This document shows, one piece after another, positions 3 through 63,964 of a stretch of 64,000 bases of DNA. The stretch covers positions 48,463 through 112,462 of the IMG/VR virus record IMGVR_UViG_3300037086_000474; one strand, 5' to 3'. Every line of letters begins with the position of its first letter. Position 1 is the stretch's first letter. Under the pieces are notes generated by a model. It was not told the DNA's origin. It worked only from the letters and a program-made list of their open reading frames with translations, and searched no databases. This DNA comes from a virus. The position numbers were made by a program, and so were the translations under genes.

Positions 3-101
3 GTTCATTCCTATTGGATTAGAGATGATGGCAAATGGGTGGATAATGGAAGGGACATGATTAGAGGGCTTTTCAAATTTGTTGGAGGATATGATTACTA
101 A
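3..101 (+). CDS. 3' end of a small protein of the C-terminal-motif family (partial)
   Basis: Frame 3 reads VHSYWIRDDGKWVDNGRDMIRGLFKFVGGYDY*; its TAA overlaps the ATG at 101. Confidence 0.6.
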   Translation, partial: VHSYWIRDDGKWVDNGRDMIRGLFKFVGGYDY

Positions 102-445
102 TGCCAGAACCTTATCGATATAAAACACAGATTTTTGCAGTTGACGTTTTGGGAGAACCAGTCCCAAACAAAGTAGATAGATACTCAGAAGAACCAAGCG
201 TTCATGTCAGTTTTGATACTAGAGACACTGAACGATATGCAGACCACGTGGCCAAGGCTTATCATAAAGCCAAACGCATCGAGTGGCAAAAATCATATAA
301 AGAACTTATGATGAATAAAAGAGCAGATCAAGCAATTGCTAGAGGGGTTGCTCTTTCTTCTACCCCCTTTGATGCAGACGAATATGAAAAGAGATATGGT
401 GCAAATCTTGTAAGGACTACTGCCGTTCCCAAGGATGCTATGTAA
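101..445 (+). CDS. hypothetical protein
   Basis: 114-aa ORF with GGAGG upstream, in a tightly packed operon. Confidence 0.7.
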   Translation: MPEPYRYKTQIFAVDVLGEPVPNKVDRYSEEPSVHVSFDTRDTERYADHVAKAYHKAKRIEWQKSYKELMMNKRADQAIARGVALSSTPFDADEYEKRYGANLVRTTAVPKDAM

Positions 446-447
446 AG

Positions 448-732
448 ATGATTAGTCTTGAGAATGTAATTGAAACATACAGAAACAAAGGCAAAGACTA
501 TCGCTCATTTGAATATCTCGGTCTAGAGACAGATTGCTCATATAAGGGATATCAACATGAGTGGGAATGTAGAGTGGGTGGCATAATAGATATGCGAGGT
601 CGATATAGTCCATATTATTTTACAATAAAAAGACTAACAATAAAGGCATTGGCAGAGGCGCTTGAGAATATGTTTAGGAGAAATGAAGTCAAGAAACTTT
701 TTTTTGATAAAATTTTTGAGGTTGCTAGATGA
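448..732 (+). CDS. small protein, C-terminal-motif family
   Basis: Ends KKLFFDKIFEVAR; ATGA overlap with next gene. Confidence 0.7.
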   Translation: MISLENVIETYRNKGKDYRSFEYLGLETDCSYKGYQHEWECRVGGIIDMRGRYSPYYFTIKRLTIKALAEALENMFRRNEVKKLFFDKIFEVAR

Positions 733-1004
733 TCAAACTGTACACTTGGTGCTTTTATACTCCAGATGGAACTCGTACTTATTTTTTCAGTCTCAATGAA
801 GAAAAGACTGTTGGAAAGGGGATTACATTTCCAAAATGGGCTGAGAAACCTATCTATCAATGGGATGCAATAGCTCACAAAGAAGATCCTGAAAACTGGG
901 TTAATGCCCACAAGCCAAAGGAATTTTCTAGAAAAGTAATTAGCTTTATTTTTGAAGACACTGCTTATGTCAAAAAGGTATGGGACCCATTCGATGAGTA
1001 CTGA
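729..1004 (+). CDS. small protein, C-terminal-motif family
   Basis: RKVISFIFED near C-terminus. Confidence 0.7.
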   Translation: MIKLYTWCFYTPDGTRTYFFSLNEEKTVGKGITFPKWAEKPIYQWDAIAHKEDPENWVNAHKPKEFSRKVISFIFEDTAYVKKVWDPFDEY

Positions 1005-1353
1005 TGTAGAAACAGGACAATGGATGACACGACAAATAGGAGCTCCTGGAACACACCTGGAACTATTTTTCTCTCTTGGTGACGCACACATCAAGAGCTT
1101 TATGAGAGGTGGTTGGATGGACGCAATACAGTGTGGATCGATTGGAAACAACTATCTTAGACAACTGACTTGCACTTTGTATGAAACATCTAAACATCTC
1201 AGGAGAACAGCTATTCAATATGCTTCAAAACCAAGGCTTCTAACTCCAAAAGAACTGAGACTAGTGAAGAAAGAAATAAAAGAATGGGAAGAAGGCCCAA
1301 GACAGATATTTATGAAGTGTATTTTTGAAAATCCAAATTCGAGAGTTCGATAA
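994..1353 (+). CDS. small protein, C-terminal-motif family; paralogue of 1353..1685
   Basis: Likely ATG at 994; GQWMTR...GWMDAIQCGSIGNN...RQIFMKCIFEN. Confidence 0.7.
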   Translation: MSTDVETGQWMTRQIGAPGTHLELFFSLGDAHIKSFMRGGWMDAIQCGSIGNNYLRQLTCTLYETSKHLRRTAIQYASKPRLLTPKELRLVKKEIKEWEEGPRQIFMKCIFENPNSRVR

Positions 1354-1685
1354 TGGAAGGCAAGTGGATAACGAGAGACGAAGGTGGTGACGATCGTTTG
1401 CTCTACTTTTGCATAAGTGGTGGACATGTTGATGATGCGCACGACGGATGGTTTGAAGCAATAAAATGTGGAAGTTTTGGGACCAATATAAATGGCAAAG
1501 ACTTTTGTTTGATTTACGATAGTCCTGATGGTATGTGGAAAACAGGCATATGGGATCAATCGGATCCAAAATATTTAAATGCGAATGAAGAAAAACTCTT
1601 CAAAGCAGCATTCAAAAGATGGGGAAAAACTGGTCGAAGATTGTTTGTGAAAATATTTTTCGAGGATATGAAATGGAAGAAGTAA
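1353..1685 (+). CDS. small protein, C-terminal-motif family; paralogue of 994..1353
   Basis: GKWITR...GWFEAIKCGSFGTN...RRLFVKIFFED. Confidence 0.75.
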   Translation: MEGKWITRDEGGDDRLLYFCISGGHVDDAHDGWFEAIKCGSFGTNINGKDFCLIYDSPDGMWKTGIWDQSDPKYLNANEEKLFKAAFKRWGKTGRRLFVKIFFEDMKWKK

Positions 1686-1906
1686 AGCAAGAATGCGATG
1701 AACTCAAAGAGTTCTTAGACGTAGAAAGAAGAATTATTCTCAAACACATTGACAGCCACAAATGGTTCAATGGCATTGCTGATAAAAATGAAGCCATTGC
1801 AGACTTCATTTCCCGTTATGCATGGCTTATCCGGGAAACTTACTGCATGAGCATTTGTGGCAATAGCAAGAATTGTGCTGTTTTGGATAGCTTGGAAGAA
1901 AAATGA
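1673..1906 (+). CDS. hypothetical helical protein with C-terminal Cys cluster
   Basis: GAGG upstream of ATG 1673; HIDSHKWF motif; CxxxCxxxxxC tail. Confidence 0.6.
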   Translation: MEEVKQECDELKEFLDVERRIILKHIDSHKWFNGIADKNEAIADFISRYAWLIRETYCMSICGNSKNCAVLDSLEEK

Positions 1907-2247
1907 AATCAGATACTAAGTTTAGAATTGGTGCCACAGTCTATTGGGCTGAAATAGATAATGCTAATTTATCACATCAGCCTGACGGTGTCAATCTTTT
2001 TAGTGGAACTGTAATTGAAGACAAGATGAGTCAGGACAGTCCATATATCAAATTCAAAGAGATACTTTACCACGTTGGAAAATACACTTATGCTGGTGAA
2101 GGACGAAAATTGGATCCAGTACATCAAAATGCTAGGTTCAGCCTCTATGGATTTATCAACTCAATGCATTATAAGATTTTCAAAAAACTAGAAAAGGCTC
2201 AGAAAGATATGATTGTTCGTATCTTTGAAAAAGAAAAATGGCTCTAA
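1903..2247 (+). CDS. small protein, C-terminal-motif family; paralogue of 2238..2549
   Basis: TVYWAEIDN...PDGVNLFSGTV...QKDMIVRIFEK. Confidence 0.75.
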   Translation: MKSDTKFRIGATVYWAEIDNANLSHQPDGVNLFSGTVIEDKMSQDSPYIKFKEILYHVGKYTYAGEGRKLDPVHQNARFSLYGFINSMHYKIFKKLEKAQKDMIVRIFEKEKWL

Positions 2248-2549
2248 AAAGATCTCTTTACGATGATGAGACCGTTTATTGGGTAGAAGTGGAGAATAGC
2301 AAAAACATTCCATTTATTGAAAATCCAGATGGTGTTTTTCTTTATCGTGGCAAGGTTCAATACACATATGAAAGTGGGCGCTATTATGTCAATAATATGG
2401 AATTGTTGTTCTCTACAGACGATAAAAAGAGATCAAAATATGGAAAAAGAGATGCAGATTTCCATAACCAGGACACGCTTTTTGACAATCTGCAAAAGGT
2501 GAAGAAAGAAATGATACGGATGATGTTCCAAAAACAACACTGGATGTAA
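2238..2549 (+). CDS. small protein, C-terminal-motif family; paralogue of 1903..2247
   Basis: TVYWVEVEN...PDGVFLYRGKV...KKEMIRMMFQK. Confidence 0.75.
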   Translation: MALKRSLYDDETVYWVEVENSKNIPFIENPDGVFLYRGKVQYTYESGRYYVNNMELLFSTDDKKRSKYGKRDADFHNQDTLFDNLQKVKKEMIRMMFQKQHWM

Positions 2550-2596
2550 GATAAAAAATCCTGGCCAACAAAGATAGTCGTAGGAGCTAATACAGA

Positions 2597-5500
2597 ATGG
2601 CTGAAAATTATCGCATAGTAGAAATAAATGGCCTAGCCATTGATCCAATCACTCAAAAAATGCCAGTAGAAATTACTGCTGAGCCACACGCTCTTTTTGG
2701 AGTTGAACATTATGGCTTGTTAGATGACAGTCAAATTCCTAGTGGAATAATGAGAGATCTCGAACATCAGCTCGATCCTCATACTATGATAATTGATGGA
2801 AGAGATGTTTCAGTGGATGGAACAAAACTCGATACAATTGAAACAGGCGCTGAAGTAAACAATCTCACTGATCAACAAGCTCAGAGTTTGACATCTGGAA
2901 TTGATTGTAATTGGCACACCCATGACAATAGATATTTCACTAAAGCCCAGCTTTCAACATCAGGAATGTCGATGGTTGATTGGGGAAATATCACAGATGC
3001 TCCGACAGCATTCAATCCGACTATTGCTACTACCTCCACTCTTGGTGGAGTTATTATTGGAAGTGGTGTCAATGTTTCTTCAAATGGAACAATTAGTGTC
3101 ACTCCGTATACTCTTCCCAAAGCGACACAAACAACTCTTGGTGGAGTGATTATAGGGCACGATATCAATATCGATGTCAATGGTGTCATCAGCATCGACA
3201 ATTACGAACCATATATGATGGAGCCTGTTATTTCTGGATACTTGCTCTCTTCAAGTGCCGCGGGACTTCGCCATTGGGTTCCACCCTATTCATTACCTCC
3301 GGCCACAACTTCTACACTTGGTGGAGTTGTTGTAGGAACCAACATTGGAGTTGATGCTAATGGAACAATAAGTGTCACCAATATTCCTTGGTCAATTATT
3401 TCATCAACACCAACTTCTATTGCTGGGTACGGAATTGTTCTCACGTTTTCCAACATCACAACTGCTCTTGGTTACACTCCAATCAATGTCAATCAAATTG
3501 GCGTTGCAAATGGTCTCGCTACGCTTGATGGTTCAGGACATTTGACCAATTCTCAAATTCCTCTATCTCTTATTGGAGCACTCGTTTATCAGGGAGTTTG
3601 GGATGCCAATACAAACACTCCACATTTAGTATCTGGAGTTGGAACAAAAGGATGGTATTATAAAGTTAGTGTGGCTGGTTCGACAAATATTGATGGAACG
3701 ACTTCTTGGGATATTGGAGATTTGATTATATTTGATGGAACGACTTGGGATGCAGTTGAAGAAGTGGCACCAGCAGTTGACAGTTTCAATGGAAGAACCG
3801 GCAATGTTGTACTTTCTTCTTCAGATGTCACAACAGCTCTTACATATACTCCATACAATGTCACAAACCCTGCTGGCTATTTGACACTTTCTACACTTCC
3901 AATTGGCTCAACAACAGTTCAAGGTATTTTGGAAGTTGGTGGTGAATTAGGTGTCTCAAATGGTGTAGTGTCCTATACACTTCCACAAGCCACGACTTCT
4001 ACTTTAGGTGGAGTAATTGTAGGAACAGGACTTTCTGTTTCTGCTGGAAATATCAGTATTGTTTATGCAGGAACGGGTTCCATTAATTCAGCTTCTCACA
4101 GCGATCATACTCATTCTAATGGCTCCAACATTGGTGGCCCCTATGAACTCGCTGATGGAAATCCATCAGCTGATGGTTATTTGTTTTCATCCACAATTCT
4201 TGGTTCGAGATCTTGGGTGGCTCCATATTCTTTGCCAGCGGCAACATCCTTTGCTCTAGGTGGAGTAAAGATTGGATCCAACATTGATGTTGAGAGTGAT
4301 GGAACAATCAGTGTCACTTTCCCAGCTGCCTATTCTCTTCCAATTGCATCTTCTTCGGTTCTTGGAGGAATAAAGATTGGGGCAAATGTTTCAGTTGCTG
4401 GTGACGGAACCATTTCTGTTGCAATTCCATATGTTCTTCCACCTGCGACCACTTCTGTTCTTGGTGGAGTAATTGTTGGAAGCAACATTAGTGTTGATGT
4501 GAATGGTGTAATTAGTATAACTGGATACGAATTAGCACTTGGAAATCCATCGACCAATGGCTACCTGCTCTCATCAACAACTTCTGGCACCAGATCTTGG
4601 GTTGCACCATATTCTCTTCCTGCCGCTACTTCTTCTGTTCTTGGAGGAGTAATTATTGGAAGTGGCATCAACAATAGCAGTGGAACTATTTCAGTAACTC
4701 CATATTCTCTTCCTGCCGCTACTTCTTCTGTTCTTGGAGGAGTAATTATTGGAAGTGGCATCAACAATAGCAGTGGAACTATTTCAGTAACTCCATATTC
4801 TCTTCCTGCCGCTACTACTTCTGTTCTTGGTGGAATAATAGTAGGAACCAACATTTCAGTTTCTTCTGGAACTATATCAGTTGCTACTGCCACCACGGCA
4901 GTTCTTGGTGTTGTCAAAGTAGGAACCAACATTACTGTATCGTCTGGAACTATATCAGTTGCTACTGCCACCACGGCAGTTCTTGGTGTTGTCAAAGTAG
5001 GAACTAATATTTCAGTAGCTTCTGGAGTTATTTCTGTTGCGACAGCTACTTCATCGGTGCTTGGACTTGTAAAGCCAGATGGAACCATTATTACCATATC
5101 CTCTGGAGCCATCACTGTTGCCACCTCTACAACAGCGGCTCTTGGTGTTGTGAAGCCAGATGGAACAACAATTACTATTGCCGCTGGAGTTATTTCGGCG
5201 ACACAATACTCTTTGCCAACAGCATCTACCACAGTTCTTGGTGGAGTAAAGATTGATGGATCCACCATCACTATTTCTGGTGGAGTAATTTCTGCTCCAT
5301 ATACCTATACTTTGCCATCTGCAACAACCGTCACTCTTGGTGGAGTGATCATTGGAAGTGGCATCACCCTTTCAAATGATGGAACAATCTCAGTCACTCC
5401 CTACACTCTTTCACAGGCCACGTCTTCCATTTTAGGTGGAGTAATTATTGGAAGTGGTATCAATGTTTCAAATGGAACCATAAGCATTGACAACTATGAA

Positions 5501-8500
5501 TTGGCACTTGGAGATCCAACGGCAGATGGATATTTGCTTTCTTCTACTACATCTGGAACGAGGTCTTGGGTTGCTCCATACTCTTATTCATTACCAGCCG
5601 CCACTACCTCTACTCTTGGAGGAGTGATTGTTGGATCCAACATTTCGGTTTCATCTGGAACGATCAGCATAACTGCAATTCCTTGGTCAATAGTTTCATC
5701 AACACCAACAACAATTTCTGGCTATGGTATTGTGATGACTTCTTCTAATGTCACCACCGCACTCGGATATACTCCAATCAATGTCAATCAGATTGGTGTT
5801 GCCAATGGGCTTGCAACTCTTGATAGTTCAGGTCACCTTACCAATTCACAAATACCCCTTTCATTAGTTGGAGCTCTCGTTTATCAAGGTGTTTGGGATG
5901 CTTCAGCCAACTCTCCTCATCTAACTAGTGGTGTTGGAACTAAAGGGTGGTATTATAAAGTAAGCGTGACTGGAACAACATCTATTGATGGAACATCGGC
6001 TTGGGGTGTTGGTGATCTTCTTATTTTCAATGGAACGACTTGGGATAGTGTTGAAGAAGTTGCTGCTGAGGTCACATCATTCAACACAAGAACTGGTAAT
6101 GTTGTATTAACTTCTTCTGATATTACGACGGCTCTTACATACACTCCATATAATGTCAGTAACCCAGCTGGATATTTGACATTGGCCACACTTCCCATTG
6201 CTTCATCTTCTACTTTTGGTATTGTAGAAATTGGAAGTGGCATTGATATCTCTGGCGGTGTAATTTCAGTCACTCCCTATTCTCTACCAACAGCATCCAC
6301 CACAGTTCTTGGTGGAGTAAAGGTTGATGGTTCTACAATCACAATTTCAAATGGGGTCATAACCGCTCCTTACACCTACACTCTTCCAATCGCTACTTCT
6401 ACAATTCTAGGTGGAGTGAAGATCGGCGCCAATATCAATATTTCAAGTGGCACCATAAGCATTGCTAATTATGAATTGGCTCTTGGAATTCCATCCACAA
6501 ATGGATACTTGCTTTCTTCCACAACCTCTGGAACGAGATCTTGGACTGTTCCATATTCTTTGCCAGTGGCAACATCCTCTGTTCTTGGTGGAGTGATCAT
6601 TGGAAGCGGTATTAATCTAAACAGTGGAACAATTAGTGTCACACCATATTCGCTCCCAACTGCATCCACCACTGTTCTGGGTGGAGTAAAGATTGATGGA
6701 TCTACCATCACAATCTCTAGTGGTGTAATTTCTGCTCCATATATATACACTCTTCCACAGGCCACCACGTCAGTTCTTGGTGGAATTATCATCGGAAGTG
6801 GCATTAATGTTTCAAGTGGAACAATCAGCGTTACTCCATATACTCTTCCAGTTGCCACTTCTTCAATTCTTGGAGGAGTAAAAATTGGAAGCAATATTGC
6901 TGTTGGTGGAGATGGAACTATCAGCATCGCCAACTATGAGTTAGTACTTGGAAATCCATCTACAAATGGATACATTCTTTCATCAACCGCTTCTGGAACA
7001 AGATCTTGGATTGCCCCATATTCTTTGCCAACTGCATCGACTACAGTATTGGGTGGTGTCAAAATTGATGGAACATCTGTAGTTATTTCTAGCGGAATCA
7101 TCTCTGCTACTTACACATACACTCTTCCTGTGGCTACTTCTTCAACCCTTGGAGGAGTTGTTGTTGGATCAGGACTTAGCGTAAATGCTGGAACAATTTC
7201 AGTCAATTTCCCAACTCCATATTCTCTTTCAATTGCAACCTCCTCAACATTGGGTGGAGTGAAGATTGGATCTAACATCAATATTGCTGGCGATGGAACT
7301 ATTTCAATAACTCCATATAGTCTTCCAATTGCAACTTCTTCTGTTCTTGGAGGAGTAAAGATTGGAAACAATATCACTGTTGGTGGTGATGGAACTATAT
7401 CTGTAGCAGCACCATATTCTCTACCAGCAGCAACAACGTCTGCACTTGGTGGAATTATTATAGGAAGCGGTCTTGGTGTGACTAGTGGAGGAACTCTATC
7501 AGTTAATTTTCCAGCATCTTATATTCTTCCAGTCGCTACAGCTTCTGTTTTGGGTGGAGTAAAAATTGGAGCTAATGTTAGTGTGACTGGAGACGGAACC
7601 ATTTCAGTAGCCACTCCATATTCACTACCAACCGCTTCAACCACCATATTAGGTGGTGTAAAAATTGATGGAACAACTGTTACAATTTCATCTGGAATTA
7701 TTTCAGCTCCCTACACATATACTCTTCCACAGGCAACTACTTCTACACTTGGTGGAGTGATAGTTGGGACAGGATTTTCTGTTTCCTTTGGAAACATTTC
7801 AGTGGTATATGCTGGAACTGGTTCAGCTAATTTTGCTGCTCATAGCGATCACAATCACACTGGAATTTATGAACCAGTGCTTGGAAATCCAGGAACGAAT
7901 GGATATATTCTTTCTTCTACAACTAGTGGAACAAGATCTTGGATTGTACCATATTCACTTCCTGCTGCCACAACATCTACGCTTGGTGGAGTGATCGTTG
8001 GAACGAACATCTCCGTATCAGCTGGAACTATCAGTATCACTGCAATTCCTTGGTCCATAATAACATCAACTCCAACCACAATTTCCGGTTATGGAATAGT
8101 TCTTACTTCATCAAACATTACCACTGCCCTTGGATATACTCCAATCAACTCCAACTTAATCGGAGCCGTTAATGGACTTGCCACCCTTGACGTAACAGGC
8201 CACTTGACGACGGCACAAATACCAACTTCTCTTCTTGGTGGTTTGAATTATCAGGGAATTTGGAATGCTTCTACAAACTCCCCTGCTTTGGCCTCTGGTG
8301 TTGGAACTAAAGGGTGGTATTATAAAGTAAGCGTGGCTGGAACAACCTCCATTGATGGAATTTCTGCTTGGGAGCTTGGTGACTTAATCATATTTGACGG
8401 CACTACTTGGGATAGAGTTGAAGGTGGAGTGACAGATGTCACATCTGTTTTTGGCAGAACTGGTGCAGTCACTTTAATATCTTCAGATGTCACTACCGCT

Positions 8501-10264
8501 CTTGGGTATACTCCTTACAATGTCACCAACCCTGCTGGTTACATCACTGCCTCAACAGTTCCAATTGCAACAGCGTCAGTGCTTGGTGGAGTAAAGATTG
8601 GAGCCAATGTAAGTGTTGCAGGAGATGGGACAATCTCTGTTGCAACACCATATTCTTTGCCAACTGCTTCAACAACCGTATTGGGTGGTGTAAAAGTTGA
8701 TGGAGCAACCATTACAATTTCATCTGGAGTGATTAGTGCTCCATATACATATACACTTCCTACCGCCACAACATCTACACTTGGTGGAGTGATTGTGGGC
8801 AGTGGCATCAATTTAGCGTCAGGAACTATATCAGTCACTCCATATTCTTTGCCAACTGCTTCAACAACCGTATTGGGTGGTGTAAAAGTTGATGGAGCAA
8901 CCATTACAATTTCATCTGGAGTGATAAGTGCTGCTACTTATGTTGATGCTCTCGCTACCACTTCTACTGCTGGTGATGTAATAATTGGTACGGGACTTTC
9001 TGTTTCTTCAGGAACTATTTCAGTAATTTATGCCGGAACTGGATCAGCCAATTCCGCTGCTCATAGTGACCATACTCATATCAATTCTTCTTCAATTGGT
9101 GGTCCATATGAACTTACACTCGGAAATCCTGGAAGCAATGGTTATGTTCTTTCTTCTACTACTTCTGGAACTAGATCTTGGGTTGCTCAAAGTTCTTACA
9201 CACTTCCACAGGCCACAGCATCAGTTCTTGGTGGAGTAATTGTAGGATCCAACATTAGTGTTGCTAATGGTGTAATTAGCATTGCCAACTATGAACCAGC
9301 ACTTGGAAATCCGGCAGGAAATGGTTATGTTCTTTCTTCTACGACCGGTGGAGTGAGATCTTGGGTGAGCGTTGCCACCACATTACAAGGTGCCTATAAT
9401 GGTGGCCAAACGGTCAATGTAAGCGGAAGTAACGTGGTATGGCAATTACCAGTCAGTAAGGGATTTGTTATTCAAGATAGCACCGGTGCCAATACCATGT
9501 TCTCAATTTATGGTAATAATACTTCTGGTTCTTTTGGGCTTGCAGGAAATCAATACAGCTCAATTCAGGTTAGTGATGTCCAGCTAGACATCTATTCAAA
9601 TGGAACAGGAAGCTCCATCACAATTCGTTCTGCAGGGACATTGACATTTGATGATAAGTTTACATCGAGTGCCATTTCACTAAGTGAAACTGGTGTAACT
9701 GGTTTGGCAGCTTCATTCTCTGGTCACGCAACCTCCATTATTGGCGCTATCAATTATATGCAGACGGAGGTCATGAGTGGTGGTGTTCAAAATGGTGTTC
9801 TCCAACTCACTAATCAGAGTTCCGCTCCAACTGGTGCCGCTGGCCAGATAGCAATGATTAATAGCGATCTTTATTTTTATGACGCTACAAGAGGAAAGTG
9901 GCTTACTCCATCTAAGACAGCTCAGTGTGCTAAGAATGGAAACTCAAAGGGTTATTATCTCAGATGGCCTGATGGTGCTCCTGGATCTGGAACATCTGGT
10001 CTTACTTTCCACAGAATTGGTACAATTGTTGGAGCCGCCATCAACACTACTACAACCGGAACTCCTGCAGTTGGAATGCACGCGTTCATAACACTCAATG
10101 GTTCTAATGTGGCTACCCTCACATTTGACAGCACGGGAGATGCCCTAAATACAACGTTCAATGTAGATTTCAATCTTCACGATGTTCTAGGAGTGAAAAT
10201 GGACAATGGCACAACTGATTTACAGAACCCAATTGCCAGCATAGAGTATAGTTTTCGTCCGTAA
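2597..10264 (+). CDS. giant repetitive tail/head fibre protein (2555 aa)
   Basis: Dozens of YxLPxATxxxLGGVxxGxxIxxxxGxIS repeats, three YQGxWxA...GWYYKVSV...FxGTTWD modules, HSDHxH motifs, G/S/T-rich; AGGAG SD and AAGATA upstream. Confidence 0.8.
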   Translation: MAENYRIVEINGLAIDPITQKMPVEITAEPHALFGVEHYGLLDDSQIPSGIMRDLEHQLDPHTMIIDGRDVSVDGTKLDTIETGAEVNNLTDQQAQSLTSGIDCNWHTHDNRYFTKAQLSTSGMSMVDWGNITDAPTAFNPTIATTSTLGGVIIGSGVNVSSNGTISVTPYTLPKATQTTLGGVIIGHDINIDVNGVISIDNYEPYMMEPVISGYLLSSSAAGLRHWVPPYSLPPATTSTLGGVVVGTNIGVDANGTISVTNIPWSIISSTPTSIAGYGIVLTFSNITTALGYTPINVNQIGVANGLATLDGSGHLTNSQIPLSLIGALVYQGVWDANTNTPHLVSGVGTKGWYYKVSVAGSTNIDGTTSWDIGDLIIFDGTTWDAVEEVAPAVDSFNGRTGNVVLSSSDVTTALTYTPYNVTNPAGYLTLSTLPIGSTTVQGILEVGGELGVSNGVVSYTLPQATTSTLGGVIVGTGLSVSAGNISIVYAGTGSINSASHSDHTHSNGSNIGGPYELADGNPSADGYLFSSTILGSRSWVAPYSLPAATSFALGGVKIGSNIDVESDGTISVTFPAAYSLPIASSSVLGGIKIGANVSVAGDGTISVAIPYVLPPATTSVLGGVIVGSNISVDVNGVISITGYELALGNPSTNGYLLSSTTSGTRSWVAPYSLPAATSSVLGGVIIGSGINNSSGTISVTPYSLPAATSSVLGGVIIGSGINNSSGTISVTPYSLPAATTSVLGGIIVGTNISVSSGTISVATATTAVLGVVKVGTNITVSSGTISVATATTAVLGVVKVGTNISVASGVISVATATSSVLGLVKPDGTIITISSGAITVATSTTAALGVVKPDGTTITIAAGVISATQYSLPTASTTVLGGVKIDGSTITISGGVISAPYTYTLPSATTVTLGGVIIGSGITLSNDGTISVTPYTLSQATSSILGGVIIGSGINVSNGTISIDNYELALGDPTADGYLLSSTTSGTRSWVAPYSYSLPAATTSTLGGVIVGSNISVSSGTISITAIPWSIVSSTPTTISGYGIVMTSSNVTTALGYTPINVNQIGVANGLATLDSSGHLTNSQIPLSLVGALVYQGVWDASANSPHLTSGVGTKGWYYKVSVTGTTSIDGTSAWGVGDLLIFNGTTWDSVEEVAAEVTSFNTRTGNVVLTSSDITTALTYTPYNVSNPAGYLTLATLPIASSSTFGIVEIGSGIDISGGVISVTPYSLPTASTTVLGGVKVDGSTITISNGVITAPYTYTLPIATSTILGGVKIGANINISSGTISIANYELALGIPSTNGYLLSSTTSGTRSWTVPYSLPVATSSVLGGVIIGSGINLNSGTISVTPYSLPTASTTVLGGVKIDGSTITISSGVISAPYIYTLPQATTSVLGGIIIGSGINVSSGTISVTPYTLPVATSSILGGVKIGSNIAVGGDGTISIANYELVLGNPSTNGYILSSTASGTRSWIAPYSLPTASTTVLGGVKIDGTSVVISSGIISATYTYTLPVATSSTLGGVVVGSGLSVNAGTISVNFPTPYSLSIATSSTLGGVKIGSNINIAGDGTISITPYSLPIATSSVLGGVKIGNNITVGGDGTISVAAPYSLPAATTSALGGIIIGSGLGVTSGGTLSVNFPASYILPVATASVLGGVKIGANVSVTGDGTISVATPYSLPTASTTILGGVKIDGTTVTISSGIISAPYTYTLPQATTSTLGGVIVGTGFSVSFGNISVVYAGTGSANFAAHSDHNHTGIYEPVLGNPGTNGYILSSTTSGTRSWIVPYSLPAATTSTLGGVIVGTNISVSAGTISITAIPWSIITSTPTTISGYGIVLTSSNITTALGYTPINSNLIGAVNGLATLDVTGHLTTAQIPTSLLGGLNYQGIWNASTNSPALASGVGTKGWYYKVSVAGTTSIDGISAWELGDLIIFDGTTWDRVEGGVTDVTSVFGRTGAVTLISSDVTTALGYTPYNVTNPAGYITASTVPIATASVLGGVKIGANVSVAGDGTISVATPYSLPTASTTVLGGVKVDGATITISSGVISAPYTYTLPTATTSTLGGVIVGSGINLASGTISVTPYSLPTASTTVLGGVKVDGATITISSGVISAATYVDALATTSTAGDVIIGTGLSVSSGTISVIYAGTGSANSAAHSDHTHINSSSIGGPYELTLGNPGSNGYVLSSTTSGTRSWVAQSSYTLPQATASVLGGVIVGSNISVANGVISIANYEPALGNPAGNGYVLSSTTGGVRSWVSVATTLQGAYNGGQTVNVSGSNVVWQLPVSKGFVIQDSTGANTMFSIYGNNTSGSFGLAGNQYSSIQVSDVQLDIYSNGTGSSITIRSAGTLTFDDKFTSSAISLSETGVTGLAASFSGHATSIIGAINYMQTEVMSGGVQNGVLQLTNQSSAPTGAAGQIAMINSDLYFYDATRGKWLTPSKTAQCAKNGNSKGYYLRWPDGAPGSGTSGLTFHRIGTIVGAAINTTTTGTPAVGMHAFITLNGSNVATLTFDSTGDALNTTFNVDFNLHDVLGVKMDNGTTDLQNPIASIEYSFRP
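4607..4815 (+). repeat. exact 93-bp tandem repeat (two copies plus a partial) inside the fibre gene
   Basis: ccatattctcttcctgccgctact...tcagtaact begins at 4607, 4700 and 4793. Confidence 0.9.
4865..5005 (+). repeat. near-exact 78-bp-period tandem repeat inside the fibre gene
   Basis: tctggaactatatcagttgctactgccaccacggcagttcttggtgttgtcaaagtaggaac at 4865 and 4943. Confidence 0.85.
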
Positions 10265-23785: not shown

Positions 23786-23965
23786 ATGAAATTTGTTGAG
23801 TATTTGGTGGAATTTGTAGTCCATATGCCTGGACATAAGAACTCGGTAGGAGAAGAAGCCCCATGGGTCATTAAGTCTCATACCACGGGCAAAATTTTGT
23901 CATCCCATAAGTCTCGTTCAGCTGCAAAGTCTCACCTCAGAGACATGCATTCCCATGGAGGCTAA
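23786..23965 (+). CDS. small His-rich protein, probable capsid-internal (not in ORF track)
   Basis: GGAGG SD; MKFVEYLVEFVVHMPGHKNS...HLRDMHSHGG, 59 aa. Confidence 0.7.
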   Translation: MKFVEYLVEFVVHMPGHKNSVGEEAPWVIKSHTTGKILSSHKSRSAAKSHLRDMHSHGG

Positions 23966-23967
23966 CA

Positions 23968-24762
23968 ATGCCTGGAGATTGGCGTCCACGACTACATGAT
24001 ATCCCCGATGAAAAAGCCCTGTTCAAGTTTTTTGAGAAAAACGCTCGGTATCGAGGAGATAATGGTTATTCTATAGCTGGGATCTATGGCGACGACACCG
24101 ATATTTTGTTTAAAAAGCTTAAGAAGGCATGGAAGGCTGACGTCAAACAACACAAAGAAGAAATAGGTGAGAGTATTGGTCTCTTTGAGAAAAAGTGCTC
24201 AAAGAAAGACATGAAAAAACATAAATCCGAAAAGAAGGAGGACATTAACATGCCCAAAACATTAGAACAAATGATTAGAGAACAGCTTGTCAAAGAACAG
24301 GCTAAGAAACAGGCTAAGAAAGAACTAGGAAATGTTACTCTGATGGCTAAGGACCAGAAATCGGTAGAAGGAAATTTGTCAGGAGTCGATAGCATAAAGC
24401 TCAAGAAAGACGACGAAAAAGAGCTAAAGATCAAGAAAATCAGTAAAAAATCAAGCTCTGTATTTGCCGATAAGAAAATGAATACGGAGGGCATTCTAAT
24501 GAAGTTTGTCAAAGCAATGGAAGAGGAAAGAGGTGTTTCAGAGCACCCCAAGGCTACTGCAAGAAAGAAGAAGAAAACCGAGGCTAGCCATGTTGGATCA
24601 AGCAAGGTTAAAGAAATTTACAAGACAGCCGAAAAACTGAAAGAGGCTCCAGGCGTAGATAACCCATGGGCCCTTGCTCATTGGCAGAAGGAAAGAAAGT
24701 TTGCTGGAGAAAGACAGCATGCTGCCGAAAAGGCCGCTAGATCAAGAAAACGAAACAAGTAA
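23968..24762 (+). CDS. Lys/Glu-rich protein, probable capsid-internal
   Basis: 264 aa, highly charged; VDNPWALAHWQK motif. Confidence 0.65.
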   Translation: MPGDWRPRLHDIPDEKALFKFFEKNARYRGDNGYSIAGIYGDDTDILFKKLKKAWKADVKQHKEEIGESIGLFEKKCSKKDMKKHKSEKKEDINMPKTLEQMIREQLVKEQAKKQAKKELGNVTLMAKDQKSVEGNLSGVDSIKLKKDDEKELKIKKISKKSSSVFADKKMNTEGILMKFVKAMEEERGVSEHPKATARKKKKTEASHVGSSKVKEIYKTAEKLKEAPGVDNPWALAHWQKERKFAGERQHAAEKAARSRKRNK

Positions 24763-24764
24763 CC

Positions 24765-25259: not shown

Positions 25260-25289
25260 TCCTAGAGAGCAGCCATATTGGAGATTCAT

Positions 25290-25547: not shown

Positions 25548-25553
25548 CCTTAA

Positions 25554-28644: not shown

Positions 28645-28660
28645 GTAAGATATATTTATA

Positions 28661-39733: not shown

Positions 39734-40009
39734 CTATTCTAGAATTGTTTTGAAGAATCGTTTTTGAACCCAATCTTTTTCATCTGATGATACAGACTTC
39801 CAAAACATGTCCCACGTGATGTTTTCGTTTTTGCCTATAGGTTTGTAGATTTTTTTTTCAAACTGAAACTTTGAGTTCTTGTGTGAATAGACATCATGTC
39901 CATCTTCATCATTGATTTTTTCCCAACCAAGGATAAACAAATAAGCCTCACCAAAATCAAAAATTACAGCTTCCTCACCACTACCAGTGTATTCGTAATA
40001 TACTTCCAT
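39734..40009 (-). CDS. small protein, C-terminal-motif family; paralogue of 63704..63964
   Basis: FWKSVSSDEKDWVQKRFFKTILE; AAGATA 5 nt before the ATG. Confidence 0.7.
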   Translation of the reverse strand: MEVYYEYTGSGEEAVIFDFGEAYLFILGWEKINDEDGHDVYSHKNSKFQFEKKIYKPIGKNENITWDMFWKSVSSDEKDWVQKRFFKTILE

Positions 40010-40051
40010 GAAGTTATCTTTCGTTTTAGAGCCGAAAAAGCATAGTTTAGA

Positions 40052-44502: not shown

Positions 44503-44907
44503 ATGTGGTTTTTTCTTATTGGAGTTGGCGTGATTTTTGCTGGATGCTTGATTTTTGCTTTTACCAAGCTAGATGCTGATGATTCAGTGTTGACAGCTAT
44601 TTTTGCATCTCTTTTCATCGCAATTGTGTTCAGCTTCGTAATCACTGCGATAGCAACATCTTGTGTACACAAAGAAACCATAGTGGAAAAAATGGATGTT
44701 GTTTCTGTGAAAACGTCGACAGGAACGGACTTTCTCTTCAAAGAAGGCAAAGAGTACAAAAACATCAACACTATGAAGTTTGACACGAAAATAACTATTG
44801 GTGAACAAATGATTGTTCAGAAAACGACGGTAAGAGTTCCTGAAAATGGTTGGTTTTTTCCAACTTCAAACTCAACCTATCTGCTTGTGATGGCTGAGGC
44901 GAGGTGA
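44503..44907 (+). CDS. membrane protein
   Basis: Two N-terminal TM segments. Confidence 0.65.
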   Translation: MWFFLIGVGVIFAGCLIFAFTKLDADDSVLTAIFASLFIAIVFSFVITAIATSCVHKETIVEKMDVVSVKTSTGTDFLFKEGKEYKNINTMKFDTKITIGEQMIVQKTTVRVPENGWFFPTSNSTYLLVMAEAR

Positions 44908-45290
44908 ATATGAACTTACTTGGTGGTTTAAGGAAGAAGGGTATAAAGAGACACAATGGTGAATACCACCAGTCTGACATCAAAGACTTTCAGGAAAAAT
45001 CCTCTGATGAAGAGAGATTGGTTTTTCTCAAAAATGTTTTTGATGAAAAAATCTATGGAGAGTACGCTGGCGGAACTCTGACCGGCATGCTGAATAAAAA
45101 GCTCAACTTCTTCAACGTGGGCAAGGGAGAGACAGAAGAAGAAAACTTTTGGATTGCTCTCAACTACATCAAGTATATGTCGGCCAATGGAAAAGGCGCT
45201 CACTATCAAGATGCTCTCGACATTGCCAACAAGGATCCAAACCAAGCTTTCATAGTGGCGAAAGCAATGCTCTGGAGTCAGAATGACTGA
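44904..45290 (+). CDS. hypothetical protein
   Basis: 128 aa, coupled. Confidence 0.6.
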   Translation: MNMNLLGGLRKKGIKRHNGEYHQSDIKDFQEKSSDEERLVFLKNVFDEKIYGEYAGGTLTGMLNKKLNFFNVGKGETEEENFWIALNYIKYMSANGKGAHYQDALDIANKDPNQAFIVAKAMLWSQND

Positions 45291-45916: not shown

Positions 45917-46612
45917 ATGAAAAAAATATTTTCTCTTCTAGTTTTGTTGGCACTAGTTGGATGTGTGAGTGTTCCAGACAACAAAGTCATTCTTCTTGCT
46001 CCTGTTCCACCTCATCCTCCTCTTACCACTGGCGCTGCTACTGTTCCAAAGGAAACTGGAACTTTCGATATTGATGCCCCAGTAGTCATTACCACCAATA
46101 CAATCAAAAATGAGATTCTTTTGAACCTCAAAGAGCTGAAAAACTCTGGTTTTACGATTGACATTTCTGATGCTCAGGTATATGGAGTCAATGATCAAAT
46201 GGCCGTTCTTGGTCTCAAAATTGATGCTCGATATAGTTTCTTCCATGCCAAGGGGTGGATCTATCTCCGCACCAAACCTGTACTTGATATACAGCGCCAA
46301 CAACTCCTTTTTACTAAAACCACATTTGATGTGCAAACGAAAAACGTGTTGGTTGGTGTTGCCAACTGGCTTCTTAATGCAGAGATTGTCAAACAAATCG
46401 ACAAAGTAAAATTCGATCTCACTGGGCCAATCAATCAACAAAAAGATTCTTTCAACAAACAGTTTGCCAACATGCCTCTTTCGGGAGTTGGAGATGCCCA
46501 TGGAAACGTGGTGAGTATTGTGGTTACCGACTACAAAATTGCCGACTCTGAGTTTTTAGTAAGGTTCAAAGTTATTGGAACTATTGATGTAAGGGTCAAC
46601 ATTCCAAAATGA
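45917..46612 (+). CDS. lipoprotein, DUF4403-like
   Basis: Lipobox LVGC; GWIYL.TKP...TKNVLVGVANWL pattern; AAGATA upstream. Confidence 0.6.
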   Translation: MKKIFSLLVLLALVGCVSVPDNKVILLAPVPPHPPLTTGAATVPKETGTFDIDAPVVITTNTIKNEILLNLKELKNSGFTIDISDAQVYGVNDQMAVLGLKIDARYSFFHAKGWIYLRTKPVLDIQRQQLLFTKTTFDVQTKNVLVGVANWLLNAEIVKQIDKVKFDLTGPINQQKDSFNKQFANMPLSGVGDAHGNVVSIVVTDYKIADSEFLVRFKVIGTIDVRVNIPK

Positions 46613-46926
46613 AGGTAGATGATCTCAAGCCATTCACATGGTACGCCGTATATGGTTCAGATGGCAAGTTCCTCATCGACAACATGCTTATAATCAACGA
46701 AGTTTCTAGAGATGATAAAGAAGCACTCTTTCAAGGGTTCTTGTTTCTTCCTCCAGAAGATCTTCAGTTCAGAAGAGGCGGATGGCTTTTTTCTCTTCCG
46801 TTAGATTCTGAAATGGACTGTCGGAAAGAATATCCTAAGCATAACGATAGAGTAAATCGACAGTGTATTGTTGAACTATTTCACACCCCCGCTTATGAAA
46901 CAGGAAAGACCACACAGCTAATCTAA
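46609..46926 (+). CDS. small protein, C-terminal-motif family
   Basis: LKPFTWYAV...NRQCIVELFHT. Confidence 0.6.
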   Translation: MKVDDLKPFTWYAVYGSDGKFLIDNMLIINEVSRDDKEALFQGFLFLPPEDLQFRRGGWLFSLPLDSEMDCRKEYPKHNDRVNRQCIVELFHTPAYETGKTTQLI

Positions 46927-46961: not shown

Positions 46962-47282
46962 ATGGTCGAGGAGAGAAATGGAAAACGCCTCCGCGATGCA
47001 TTGGGACTAATCCGAGGCAATATTTTCTATCTGAAAAATCGAGGACTTGTGGTTTGGACAGATGGATCCATTCATACTCATCTCGTCTATAAGAGCACTA
47101 GATTATGGGAGAATGAACCCCATTGCTATTTCAGTTTGTGTTGGGGTGCTCCTCTCAAAACCCGTCTTATAAGAGTCAAAGTCAAACAAATGCAAAACAT
47201 GTTCAATGATGACAGTTTGCAACCACTTTCAGAAGCCGAGTTTGCAAAGTTTATCCTTGGATTGAAAAAGGAAGAACTCTAA
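46962..47282 (+). CDS. hypothetical protein
   Basis: GCATACTT upstream; 106 aa. Confidence 0.6.
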   Translation: MVEERNGKRLRDALGLIRGNIFYLKNRGLVVWTDGSIHTHLVYKSTRLWENEPHCYFSLCWGAPLKTRLIRVKVKQMQNMFNDDSLQPLSEAEFAKFILGLKKEEL

Positions 47283-50391: not shown

Positions 50392-51939
50392 ATGGGGTTT
50401 TGGTCACCGCTTCGAGTTCACAATCTCATGGAAGACATCAGTTCACTCAACATTCGAAGAACTGATTTCTGTGATAACTGTCTCTTCTTCCAGAGAATGA
50501 TTGACGACTTCAAGAAGAAAAAAATCCCAACTCTTGAAATCGAACAGAAACTTGCGGAATATGGTTCTATTTCGCATCAACTGTCAGAACTCATTGGTGA
50601 GAAACAGGAGCAGCTGAAGAAGTTGATGCTGAAGAATAAATGAAAGATCTAACAAACGACATAGAAGTTTTAGGAGTTCGAATCAAAGAAGATTGTCTGC
50701 CCCTGGTTCAAAGGAAGATGGTTGATTTTCCTTCCATTCGTTTTCTCTACAATCCTTTGAGATACAAAGGCACTAACTACTATGAAATCTCCTATGGTGG
50801 TAGTGTGGATGATGTCAGAGGTTTCGAAACTACCATCGAAGATTTCTATTACAAAGAGCCCAAAGAAGAAAAGATTCCTTTCTTCCAGAGGCTCTTTGGA
50901 AAGCGCAAGTGACCTTCAAGAATCGAATCCATTCTGGAGATTACTGTTGGTTTGATTGGCTAGATTTCGAAAAGAAATTTCGTCCTAGTGTAATCAAACC
51001 TATCTACATCCTTACTCCTCGCCTGTGGGCCGAAGGCATCTTGATTTCTGATGTCGTATTATTTTTACAAGAGGGGTACTACGACAACTCTGATCAAATC
51101 AACTGTGGTTATTTTCGAGGTCTGATAAATAATCAAACCATCGATTTCATGATTGATAATGAAACTCTTGAAAAGGCATATGATCAATGTATGTTCGATC
51201 TTTCAAAAGAAGATGATCGAATAGCCAAGTTGATGTTGGTTTTAGAGATGAGCGGAGTTGATGTAATATGAAAGAAGAATAGATATGAAGCGTAGTCCAA
51301 TCTCGATCAAGGAATACAAACAGGGAAACTTTACTCCTTGTATCAATGACCTCAAGTTTCGACCTGTCATTAGGAAATACGGTGATTTTCCTGGTATTTT
51401 GAAGCGCGCGTTTTCAAACCACAGAGTGATATTCCTTGATCAGTTTGGCAAACAAGATTTCGTCTTCACTGGTGAATATAAGCACTATTGTTGGGGATTC
51501 ACCCTTCCATCTGGACTCCGTCTTGTTGTGCTCACTGGGAATCAAGGCACAGGATACGAATATGAACTGGGATCGAAGATTACCAAAGAAGACGTGGCTG
51601 ATCTCGATCATTTTCTAGATGGGCTGAAATAGGAGAAGAGAGATGAGTGCGAGGAAGATTGTTTTGTGGGTGATTTTGACCTTGGGCACACTTGCTCTCA
51701 TAGTCCTTATTAGCTTCACGATTTTTCGTGACTATCATCCGACACCCAAGCAGGCTATCGAAAGAGCTGTTGCCCATGAGGATAGCATGGAAGCTGGGCT
51801 TCCTACGAGTTTTGTTTTCATAGAAGATCGTGGCAATGGTTATCGTCTCTACAAGGACGAGTTTGGATACTACCTTGTTTGGCATGACACCACCTATGCG
51901 GCGTCAACTCACATCACTTTTCTTGGAAAGGCGAGATAA
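50392..51939 (+). other. run of five small hypothetical genes (50392-50643, 50640-50912, 50909-51271, 51285-51632, 51643-51939)
   Basis: Tandem ORFs with SD sites or overlapping starts/stops; the last has an N-terminal TM. Confidence 0.6.
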
Positions 51940-60864: not shown

Positions 60865-60865
60865 C

Positions 60866-61897: not shown

Positions 61898-62485
61898 ATG
61901 AAGGCAAAACAGAGGAAAGAGATTGAAGAGAATCCCGCTGCTTGGATAAGAAGTACAGCAAAGTTCTTCTGGAACGTTTTTCATGACGAAAGCGACTACA
62001 TTCCTGCTTTCATAGAGAAGTTGCTTGCTGGTGGCGGTGGCAATTCCATGTTCAATCAAAGTTGGGTGTTTACATCTTCTCTCTTTGTTCAGAGAAGAAT
62101 CTCTAGTGAGGCAGTAAAAGTATTGGAAGAGCTTGGTCTTTCAAAGAACAACATACCTCATGATTTGTTGCATGATAATGCAAAGGGAGAAGCAGACCGG
62201 AAAGCAATTGGAAAGCTTCTGCATGAGGACCATTGTCCAGGAAACGTGAAAGTCATGCACTTGATCAGGGACAAGATACGGTCGTACCCTCTGACTGCAA
62301 CCTTTGAAGACATCGCAGATGACCTTTGTGAGTTTTTGAAAACTGTCCAGACTCTGGACATTATTACAGTCAAACAGGACGATATGAGAACCTTGAAGAG
62401 CAGCGGCTTTGTGAAGAAGCAAAAGGACATGTTTACTCACGAGGAAAGAGATGCTCTTCTAGATGACGAGTGGGAGGATATGTAA
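61898..62485 (+). CDS. hypothetical protein, possible His-metal nuclease
   Basis: GGAG SD; HEDHCPG...DIITVKQD; early-type promoter at 61823. Confidence 0.55.
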   Translation: MKAKQRKEIEENPAAWIRSTAKFFWNVFHDESDYIPAFIEKLLAGGGGNSMFNQSWVFTSSLFVQRRISSEAVKVLEELGLSKNNIPHDLLHDNAKGEADRKAIGKLLHEDHCPGNVKVMHLIRDKIRSYPLTATFEDIADDLCEFLKTVQTLDIITVKQDDMRTLKSSGFVKKQKDMFTHEERDALLDDEWEDM

Positions 62486-62526
62486 GATCGAACATAGTCA
62501 TCCATAGAGTTTCATGGCCCCAAAAT

Positions 62527-62558
62527 ATGGGCTCTATTACAGAGCCCATTTTGTTTTT
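62527..62558 (+). terminator. intrinsic terminator
   Basis: atgggctct-attac-agagcccat-tttgttttt. Confidence 0.8.
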
Positions 62559-62665
62559 AGACCATTGGCTCGATGAGAGTTTATACGGTTGAAAACCGTG
62601 GAAAAGCATATTTTCATTCTATAGAAGAAGACCAATGTGATAAGAGTTGAATTCAAAAATGATAA

Positions 62666-63700
62666 ATGGAAGGATATTCAAAATTGAGATCTGAAAAAGC
62701 AAAGAAATACGATTTTTGGCCCACCCCAGAAATTACAAAAACAGATTTATTTTCTCTAATCAAAGATTTTTCAGGAACATGGGTAGAAAACTCAGTAGGG
62801 CAAGGAGCGCTCCTTTCAGCACTTATTGACAAGGGCGTCAAGCAAAATAAAATAACTGCAATCGACATTGACAAGGATAACATAGACCATTGCAAAGAAC
62901 TGTGGCCCCATGTGAATTATATTCATGGAGATTTTCTTGATAGCACTGGAAAATGGGACAACTGTGTCTATAATCCACCATTCACTAAATGGGAAGAGTT
63001 TACAAGAAAATCATTGGAATGTTGCGAAAATCTCTATGCAATATTGCCCAACAATTGGGCCCATAGTCCTAGAGCAAGGTATTTTGATTTACAGTCTCGT
63101 ATTGTAAATGAGGTGTATGACAGAAAATATTTTTGCGAGTTTGGTATTCAACAGTGTATCTCTCTTTTCGTGATAAAGAAGGATCACTATGTAGATCACA
63201 GCATTGCAAAAGAAAAATATTTTCATGAAAAAGATTTACTAGCAAAAGTTGAAAATGGACAAACAACAGATGCATTCAAACAAAAACTGGTTGATCAAAG
63301 ATTTGGAATAATTGTCCCATGGGGACCAACATTCAATAATAGTGGATGTCTTCCAAGAGGAACTAAAGTGAATTTGGGTCCCGTTGTTCGTGCAATTCAT
63401 CTATCAAACGAATTTTATGTAGACGAAAACTTTGTCATGTACAATGGAAAACTAAAATCTGGTAAAGACTTTGAGTTTCTCTATATTAGACGTCATACTA
63501 ACGATAGAGTACAGAAGGGAAGCCGAAGAGACGCTGTTTGGTGTCTATATTGTGAAAATGAAAAGGAATTAGATAAATTGATTGATTTTTATATAAACTA
63601 TCCAGTGGATTTTCATTGTAAGTTTTCTAATTGGAACTGTTCAAAACATACTATAGTACCAGATTGGTATGCAAAAAAATATGAGTCACTTGAGAAGTGA
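62666..63700 (+). CDS. N6-adenine DNA methyltransferase (gamma order)
   Basis: FWPTP, ENSVGQGAL motif I, IDID, GDFL, VYNPPF motif IV. Confidence 0.85.
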   Translation: MEGYSKLRSEKAKKYDFWPTPEITKTDLFSLIKDFSGTWVENSVGQGALLSALIDKGVKQNKITAIDIDKDNIDHCKELWPHVNYIHGDFLDSTGKWDNCVYNPPFTKWEEFTRKSLECCENLYAILPNNWAHSPRARYFDLQSRIVNEVYDRKYFCEFGIQQCISLFVIKKDHYVDHSIAKEKYFHEKDLLAKVENGQTTDAFKQKLVDQRFGIIVPWGPTFNNSGCLPRGTKVNLGPVVRAIHLSNEFYVDENFVMYNGKLKSGKDFEFLYIRRHTNDRVQKGSRRDAVWCLYCENEKELDKLIDFYINYPVDFHCKFSNWNCSKHTIVPDWYAKKYESLEK

Positions 63701-63703
63701 GAT

Positions 63704-63964
63704 TCAAATAAGAACCGTTTGGATCATTTTCCGCATCATCCATTCTCGGTCTGATGATTTTATATGTTCCCAAAAATAAGATGTAATATCTGAGTCCTCC
63801 TCATCTTCATGTGAATGTGTATAAAACACATATTTGCCTTTTTTGGGAGGAAGAGTCTTTCGTTTGTTTGAGATATGATCCCAACTAATCCGAAGCTGAG
63901 CTCCATCAAAACTCCAAATAACAATTTCAGTTCCCGTGTCGTAATAGCTGTAAAATATCTGCAT
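63704..63964 (-). CDS. small protein, C-terminal-motif family; paralogue of 39734..40009
   Basis: FWEHIKSSDREWMMRKMIQTVLI; AAGATA 6 nt before the ATG. Confidence 0.7.
   Translation of the reverse strand: MQIFYSYYDTGTEIVIWSFDGAQLRISWDHISNKRKTLPPKKGKYVFYTHSHEDEEDSDITSYFWEHIKSSDREWMMRKMIQTVLI

Follow-up and report, generated by a model that had tools for sequence, protein, structure and literature searches.

Among the described systems in which diverse small phage proteins share a short peptide, the closest to the one considered here is the capsid-targeting sequence (CTS) of phage T4; it is common to the diverse internal proteins IPI-III and Alt, lies at the N-terminus and is removed by the prohead protease after a glutamate residue (PMC3012670). 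Two further points of reference are the lineage-specific expansions of small open reading frames (ORFs) known as hyperplastic regions in T4-type phages, and the small barrels of the SH3, Tudor, chromo-barrel and PWWP types. The subject of this text is a short amphipathic motif that lies near the end of 16 small proteins encoded in a 64,000-nucleotide window, namely positions 48,463 to 112,462, the last 64 kb, of the single 112,462-bp virus record IMGVR_UViG_3300037086_000474 of IMG/VR. The initial annotation of this window had read the motif as a constant docking or targeting helix carried by otherwise dissimilar proteins of one promoter class, and the set as a possible phage cargo-tagging system. 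The evidence presented below tentatively favours another explanation over a detachable tag: mini-proteins of a barrel-plus-helix type that have expanded within one lineage and diverged.

Like the T4 CTS, the motif is a short amphipathic peptide shared by diverse small proteins and ending in (L/I)-x-E, and this phage, like T4, has a T4-type terminase. Unlike the CTS, it is not N-terminal and starts at residue 67-104 of proteins of 81-119 amino acids (aa), and its Glu is present in 8 of 16 instances and 29% conserved in the 14-member family built around the two carriers encoded from positions 1903 and 2238 (the 1903/2238 family). By comparison with the T4-type hyperplastic regions, the locus likewise shows tandem runs of ORFans and paralog pairs that match no database family, and the genome holds another expanded set with a terminal motif of its own (AK-x-LL); it differs from them in that the motif spans 12 families that cannot be linked by sequence, so that a simple paralog family is not demonstrated.

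The motif and its carriers

All 16 peptide strings listed in the initial annotation are indeed translated from their ORFs where it had placed them. The motif takes the form basic - x - hydrophobic - hydrophobic - x - x - [ILM] - F - often acidic, and its carriers are the following.

3-100, plus strand: motif ORF of 105 aa, C-terminal part in the window, start 216 nucleotides (nt) before it; motif 51-77, ending F-K, no acidic residue
448-732, plus strand: motif ORF of 94 aa; motif 694-720, 3 aa from the end
729-1004, plus strand: motif ORF of 91 aa; motif 930-956
994-1353, plus strand: motif ORF of 119 aa; motif 1303-1329; paralog of 1353-1685
1353-1685, plus strand: motif ORF of 110 aa; motif 1638-1664; paralog of 994-1353
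1903-2247, plus strand: motif ORF of 114 aa; motif 2203-2229; modelled family
2238-2549, plus strand: motif ORF of 103 aa; motif 2505-2531; paralog of 1903-2247
25868-26143, plus strand: motif ORF of 91 aa, weak member; motif 26087-26113
26140-26490, plus strand: motif ORF of 116 aa; motif 26371-26397, 30 aa before the end; paralog of 26490-26846
26490-26846, plus strand: motif ORF of 118 aa; motif 26730-26756, 29 aa before the end
28661-28954, plus strand: motif ORF of 97 aa; motif 28907-28933; first gene past a strong terminator
35173-35436, plus strand: motif ORF of 87 aa, weak member; motif 35380-35406, ending F-T
35438-35683, plus strand: motif ORF of 81 aa; motif 35636-35662
39734-40009, minus strand: motif ORF of 91 aa, weak member; motif 39737-39763 at the extreme protein end, I-L-E; paralog of 63704-63964
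46609-46926, plus strand: motif ORF of 105 aa, weak member; motif 46858-46884, ending F-H
63704-63964, minus strand: motif ORF of 86 aa, weak member; motif 63707-63733, V-L-I; paralog of 39734-40009

The F of the motif is present in 14 of the 16 instances. Twelve have K, R or H at position 1 and two have Q, position 7 is aliphatic, and the residue after F is acidic in 11, Glu accounting for eight of these; G, P or N often stands on either side of the helix. The description of the motif as C-terminal holds for most carriers, in which it lies near the end, but not for those encoded at 26140 and 26490, where 29-30 structured-looking residues follow it. Beside the carriers, an ORF at 1619-1906 runs in another frame across the end of 1353-1685; it probably starts at the ATG at 1673 and would then encode 77 aa, and the part of the frame upstream of this start also reads like the motif, probably by coincidence in T-rich DNA.

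The motif was scored as a tight regular expression, [ILMVFC][ILMVF]..[ILMF]F[EDQ], in the last 37 aa of genes of up to 160 aa. There it has 10 matches, against a mean of 0.68 in residue shuffles (maximum 4 in 2000), and is thus commoner in these tails than in shuffled controls; elsewhere in the 34,054 aa of called proteins, about 30,000 residues outside the tails of small genes, a single match occurs where 3.5 would be expected. Among the 158 genes called by codon-usage score (16 claimed as carriers, 142 unclaimed), a hidden Markov model (HMM) of the motif built from all 16 instances gives no other real gene of the 112-kb record more than 1.7 bits; the next-best matches are ORFs in wrong frames, at no more than 6.3 bits, and the members themselves reach 9-16 bits. 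When each family is left out of its own HMM in turn, the carriers at 448, 729, 994, 1903, 26490, 28661 and 35438 still score above all 142 unclaimed genes, and those at 3-100, 1353 and 2238 are outscored by at most two (ORF 3-100 by exactly two). The remaining six, at 25868, 26140, 35173, 39734, 46609 and 63704, are weak, being outscored by 6-57 unclaimed genes; in all six the best local match to the HMM nevertheless falls at the claimed site, and 26140, weak on its own, is a clear paralog of 26490. The solid members thus number 10-11, in 7-8 families, and the earlier count of about 16 was generous, as 5-6 of the proteins are inseparable from background when taken alone.

Less directed comparisons are less telling. 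A reduced-alphabet de novo search over all tails reached at most 8 families against 7.7 in shuffles and is uninformative. The tails of the claimed set are more similar between families than those of 5000 random sets, a result that is partly circular since the set was chosen by eye. An unbiased 9-mer comparison of tails does give an overall excess of similarity, dominated by a different motif set (maximum degree 19, against 11.4 in shuffles). This second set consists of small beta-rich proteins with an end helix of the form acidic - x - hydrophobic - A-K - x - [LM][LM] - x - G; its genes lie at 44904-45290, 46962-47282 and 50909-51271, with about 10 more located 40-45 kb upstream of the start of the window.

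The 16 carriers fall into 12 sequence families, including four paralog pairs (994/1353, 1903/2238, 26140/26490 and 39734/63704). BLAST and iterated HMMER searches over all six-frame ORFs revealed no links beyond these pairs, and hhalign comparisons between the 12 families gave probabilities of at most 19%, none of them convincing. For the 15 carriers scanned (all but ORF 3-100), Pfam yielded no match at gathering score, the phage family PF24203 (Phage_ProQ_C_like) included, and the best PHROGs match, at E=0.0038, was to a family of unknown function; the view that this is not a described family therefore stands, there being no Pfam or PHROG family match. The view that the proteins are otherwise dissimilar stands in part: the 12 families cannot be linked by sequence, yet there are the four pairs and a shared composition rich in tryptophan and tyrosine (W+Y). 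The carriers contain 8.9% W+Y, against 5.3% in 83 other small proteins (p=3e-6), and the difference is greater in their first 25 residues (11.3% against 4.9%, p=1e-5); this richness lies outside the motif, and many carriers start with an aromatic beta-strand. None of the larger proteins of the record has the motif. The isoelectric points (pI) of the carriers span 4.5 to 9.6, several being strongly acidic overall, and their grand average of hydropathy (GRAVY) of -0.4 to -0.9 marks them as otherwise hydrophilic.

A predicted small barrel closed by the helix

The position of the helix within a fold could be modelled for the 1903/2238 family. An exhaustive HMMER search with this family led to 14 proteins, the pair itself and 12 metagenomic homologues, which are 24-60% identical in the resulting alignment (A2). 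The helix is the best-conserved segment of A2: the near-invariant residues are D28, G29, A99, M103, I104, F108, K110 and W113, and at its end L96, A99, M103, I104, F108, K110 and W113 are conserved at 86-93%. Within the helix, positions 97, 98, 105, 106 and 109 vary, and the conserved stripe formed by L96, A99, M103, I104 and F108 is one-sided. Position 109, which corresponds to the “E” of the motif, is the one conserved at 29% and is occupied by E, S, G, Q, R, A, K, N or T.

AlphaFold2 (AF2) run on A2 gave a model with a predicted local distance difference test score (pLDDT) of 82 and a predicted template modelling score (pTM) of 0.77; with four sequences only, the pLDDT was 47. The model comprises long strands at residues 12-19, 28-38 and 48-60, short elements at 72-87 and a terminal helix at 96-109, whose block pLDDT is 92-96. 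The helix of the 1903/2238 family is predicted, with high confidence, to be the terminal helix of an SH3/Tudor/chromo-barrel-like fold. The best match of the model in the PDB by Foldseek is the chromo-barrel of MSL3, a weak one (E=0.09, template modelling (TM) score 0.39-0.47). In a VIA-align comparison with 48,161 chains, PWWP and MRG chromo-barrel domains come out on top, again weakly (Z=4.2), in an alignment that covers model residues 5-114 and includes the terminal helix. Tudor domains are also among the best fold matches, and the ESM Atlas points, at the level of leads only, to other small barrels (ProQ-C-like and SplA); a PDB sequence search with A2 found nothing. As read from the model, these weak matches indicate a helix-capped small SH3/Tudor-like barrel and do not indicate a function.

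The family thus resembles the SH3, Tudor, chromo-barrel and PWWP small barrels in its predicted combination of a small barrel with a terminal helix, a likeness that the ESM Atlas leads extend to the phage ProQ-C-like family PF24203. It differs from known small barrels in that the matches remain weak (TM 0.4-0.5) with no Pfam match at E<=1, and from the chromo, Tudor and ProQ barrels in that no histone- or RNA-binding residues can be claimed for it. In a distant homologue, P0018 (214 aa), three tandem units of about 70 aa each contain a strand-helix part that matches the 1903-family profile; as the unit is repeated three times in tandem, the helix is internal to the domain there. The protein P0011 (1759 aa) matches profile positions 12-32 fourteen times and is a hairpin repeat protein. 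When the A2 profile was compared with about 100 small proteins, the top two matches outside the family were both claimed members; one of the two, 26140, is matched through the N-terminal strand and not through the motif. The motif of 26490-26846 is retained in a 71%-identical metagenomic homologue, and no further homologues of the 26140/26490 family were found.

Taken together, the motif would be the hydrophobic face of a short amphipathic helix that closes a small domain rich in aromatic residues and beta-strands, and the 16 genes would represent a lineage-specific expansion of such barrel-plus-helix mini-proteins in a large phage. Divergence would have left the packing helix, the W/Y-rich beta body and the size of 81-119 aa as common remnants. 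A buried packing helix is suggested by the one-sided hydrophobic stripe with its small Ala, the freedom of the polar positions and the confident model; the helix would then lie against the barrel and not be free to dock. An expansion is favoured because the carriers are uniform in size, share an aromatic, beta-rich character, include no large protein, and in 26140 and 26490 continue past the motif.

Several points weigh against this explanation. BLAST, iterated HMMER and hhalign detect no homology between the 12 families, and we therefore only infer that the other 11 share a common origin and the same architecture. The model covers one family of the 12, burial of the helix being presumed, and its fold matches are weak (Z of about 4). 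A near-invariant Phe across otherwise unlike families exceeds the norm for a generic packing helix, and several members have a short helix with G, P or N on either side, a feature often seen in docking peptides.

The AAGATA element and the neighbouring genes

The initial annotation had also assigned the carriers to a common promoter class marked by AAGATA. The hexamer does stand 5-8 nt before the ATG of the four carriers for which this was reported, 28661, 35173, 40009 (minus strand) and 63964 (minus strand), and it also precedes a very large gene.

28616-28652, plus strand: intrinsic-terminator-like hairpin (28616-28639) followed by AAGATA (28647-28652), 8 nt before the ATG at 28661
35161-35166, plus strand: AAGATA, 6 nt ahead of the ATG at 35173; no intervening Shine-Dalgarno sequence
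40015-40020, minus strand: AAGATA, 5 nt before the ATG of the 39734-40009 gene
63971-63976, minus strand: AAGATA, 6 nt before the ATG of the 63704-63964 gene
2571-2576, plus strand: AAGATA, 20 nt ahead of the head-fibre-repeat gene 2597-10264; AGGAG intervening

Further AAGATA(A) sites lie at 13472, 23725 (minus strand) and 45892. Of the 92 copies of AAGATA in the record, 23 are wholly intergenic, where intergenic DNA makes up 9.3% of the record; this is the highest fraction among 30 hexamer permutations, and the intergenic copies extend to AAGATAA. In a narrower test, confined to the 0-14 nt ahead of any ATG, the hexamer was no more frequent than its permutations. The element takes one of two placements: 19-45 nt upstream of starts that have a Shine-Dalgarno sequence or, where there is none, at 5-8 nt from the ATG; the latter may give rise to leaderless transcripts. 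The many genes with the distal placement include five large ones (698, 648, 1216, 524 and 2555 aa); a fibre-family match exists for the 2555-aa gene only, and the other four are taken as putative fibre proteins from their size and similar C-terminal ends.

AAGATA(A) is thus probably a real promoter core, and the T4 late -10 box offers an analogy by which it may be a mark of late genes. On inspection, every motif gene belongs to a co-directional run with the element at its head, in line with the initial annotation. The shared promoter class holds insofar as the element is genuine and enriched between genes, but the motif proteins are not the only ones to have it: many other genes lie in such runs too, and one copy stands before 2597-10264. 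Late expression of the carriers is plausible, because AAGATA(A) is enriched intergenically and found upstream of several very large genes, two of which are fibre- or tail-like by family match, as well as of four motif genes. The position of the runs beside fibre, head-module and terminase genes suggests that the carriers are late-expressed accessory or binding modules.

As for the genes themselves, the large terminase (28921-31905) is of the T4 type and at most 33% identical to those of known phages. It carries an N-terminal extension of about 460 aa, the T4-type homology starting around residue 462, and its gene start is overlapped by motif gene 28661-28954 over 34 nt. The 2555-aa protein of 2597-10264 has phi29 head-fibre-like repeats and matches that family (PF11133, 233 bits); several large proteins share a C-terminal segment like its own, which suggests many fibre paralogs. 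Several proteins encoded at 23786-25871 and 31906-32217 have leaders of the form M-[KR]-hydrophobic-x-E-hydrophobic-hydrophobic-x-E that resemble the T4 CTS, and two of these proteins have very basic bodies or tails. The motif trio at 25868-26846 belongs to the same co-directional run as the proteins with CTS-like leaders and a transglutaminase-like protein; the latter, a 259-aa protein encoded at 26861-27640 with a transglutaminase-like domain (DUF553, 25.7 bits, above cut-off), lies directly after the trio, between it and the terminase operon. On the minus strand, 39734-40009 heads a run with proteins of 413 and 926 aa that have no informative family match. The gene directly preceding 46609-46926, in a run headed by AAGATAA, is 45917-46612, whose 231-aa protein begins with a lipoprotein-like signal peptide (a hydrophobic stretch followed by Cys).

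IMG/VR classes the record as a provirus with an estimated completeness of about 54%, and proteins of the motif genes are also present on a 187,052-bp contig. Megablast matched the record to no phage record; megablast and tblastn searches of phage records found no related phage, a search of viral and metagenome contigs found no related loci, and two degenerate DNA-pattern scans for relatives returned chance matches only. To judge from its sequence, the phage is novel and large, with a T4-type terminase. Most other genes of the record have no family match, the further annotated ones encoding a 703-aa tail protein, an M23 peptidase and rIIA. Neither a prohead protease (Peptidase_S77, PF03420) nor a sliding clamp (PF02916) has a match in the record, itself about 54% complete.

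Docking, membrane and nucleotide-level explanations

The alternative closest to the initial annotation is a shared docking or sorting helix through which unrelated small proteins would bind a common partner, either as packaged cargo or as interchangeable adaptors. Conceivable partners are the scaffold or capsid interior, the helix then acting as a C-terminal analogue of the CTS, a fibre or baseplate hub, or a hub protein of the host. Such a helix would account for bodies without detectable homology that nonetheless retain F in 14 of 16 cases, for the semi-conserved flanking charges (basic in 12, acidic in 11) and for the frequent G, P or N on either side. The genomic setting is consistent with it as well, as AAGATA(A), which occurs before fibre genes too, heads the runs of the carrier genes, and these adjoin both the terminase gene and the run with CTS-like N-terminal leaders. 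Moreover, T4 provides a precedent in its diverse internal proteins, which share just their capsid-targeting sequence (PMC3012670).

The cargo-tag interpretation is nonetheless not established, and the evidence leans away from a detachable C-terminal tag. In the modelled family, AF2 confidently integrates the helix into the barrel, and it is the hydrophobic face that is conserved and not the acidic residue. A site for a Glu-specific prohead protease was rejected for the 1903 family on this ground, and since the acidic residue is not conserved among orthologues, Glu-specific cleavage is unlikely. All carriers belong to one size class, no large protein bears the motif, their pI varies widely, and in 26140 and 26490 the motif lies well before the end. 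The phage apparently already uses ordinary T4-like leaders at the N-termini of other proteins, and no partner emerges from the record, which is about 54% complete and contains no recognisable prohead protease or clamp. A docking or sorting helix is therefore possible but doubtful. Its more specific version is rather unlikely: a portable C-terminal address by which a dozen unrelated small late proteins would reach one hub of the phage, be it the scaffold or capsid interior, a fibre or baseplate, or the terminase through its N-terminal extension, as a second sorting code beside the N-terminal leaders.

Another short element found near the C-terminus, and similar to the motif in its spacing, is the clamp-binding PIP-box, Q-x-x-[ILM]-x-x-[FY]-[FY]. 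It was rejected as an explanation: Q occupies position 1 in only 2 of 16 instances, position 7 is aliphatic, and the motif is predicted to lie in a helix and not in a flexible tail. Unlike the PIP-box, the motif also has an extra hydrophobic residue at position 3, and its helix, a long one, reaches pLDDT 92-96 in the 1903 model.

The helix could also be of the peripheral membrane-targeting type known from MinD and FtsA, bringing small soluble proteins to the inner membrane. It is indeed short, amphipathic and mostly C-terminal, has basic residues beside a four-residue hydrophobic face, and sits on proteins that are otherwise hydrophilic. However, the residue right after the hydrophobic face is acidic in 11 of 16 instances, the helix is predicted with high confidence to be packed in the modelled family, the motif is internal in 26140 and 26490, and several carriers are strongly acidic overall; membrane targeting is thus improbable.

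There remains the reading in which the motif is no protein-level feature at all and stems from chance, from composition or from a nucleotide signal embedded where genes end (a promoter, a signal for coupling, or one for recombination like the T-rich ATTTTTGA). Many instances do read ATT TTT GAA or ATT TTT GAT, and ORFs in wrong frames of this AT-rich DNA yield about 19 loose matches to the regular expression. These wrong-frame matches are scattered, however, and stay below the scores of the members, while the tail matches far exceed expectation (10 against 0.68). The codons differ between instances: the conserved F is encoded by TTT in 10 cases and TTC in 4 (genome-wide 55:45), eight codons (ATT, ATC, ATG, CTT, CTC, CTA, TTT and GTT) are used for the residue before it, and whole instances differ at most codon positions (for example CTC TTC GAG, ATG TTC CAA and ATC TTT GAA). 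As codons vary at conserved positions, selection acts at the level of the peptide, in agreement with the initial annotation, and the motif is retained in the 24-60% identical homologues from other samples. A Bacteroidota-type TAnnTTTG box in the DNA, a TGA in an alternative frame and a slippery run were each rejected because of this variation in codons. An explanation without any protein-level feature is largely refuted and very improbable.

If the helix did turn out to be a docking element, this would amount to a simple and new code by which accessory proteins of phages are sorted or serve as adaptors; it could be put to use in packaging foreign proteins, as has been done with the T4 CTS, and would help to explain how the dozens of small ORFan proteins in large phages are organised. 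If, as the favoured barrel-plus-helix expansion would have it, the helix is an element of the fold only, the set adds one more uncharacterised protein expansion to those of phages, yet it would provide a useful HMM seed and a reminder that “tags” spotted by eye may be fold elements.

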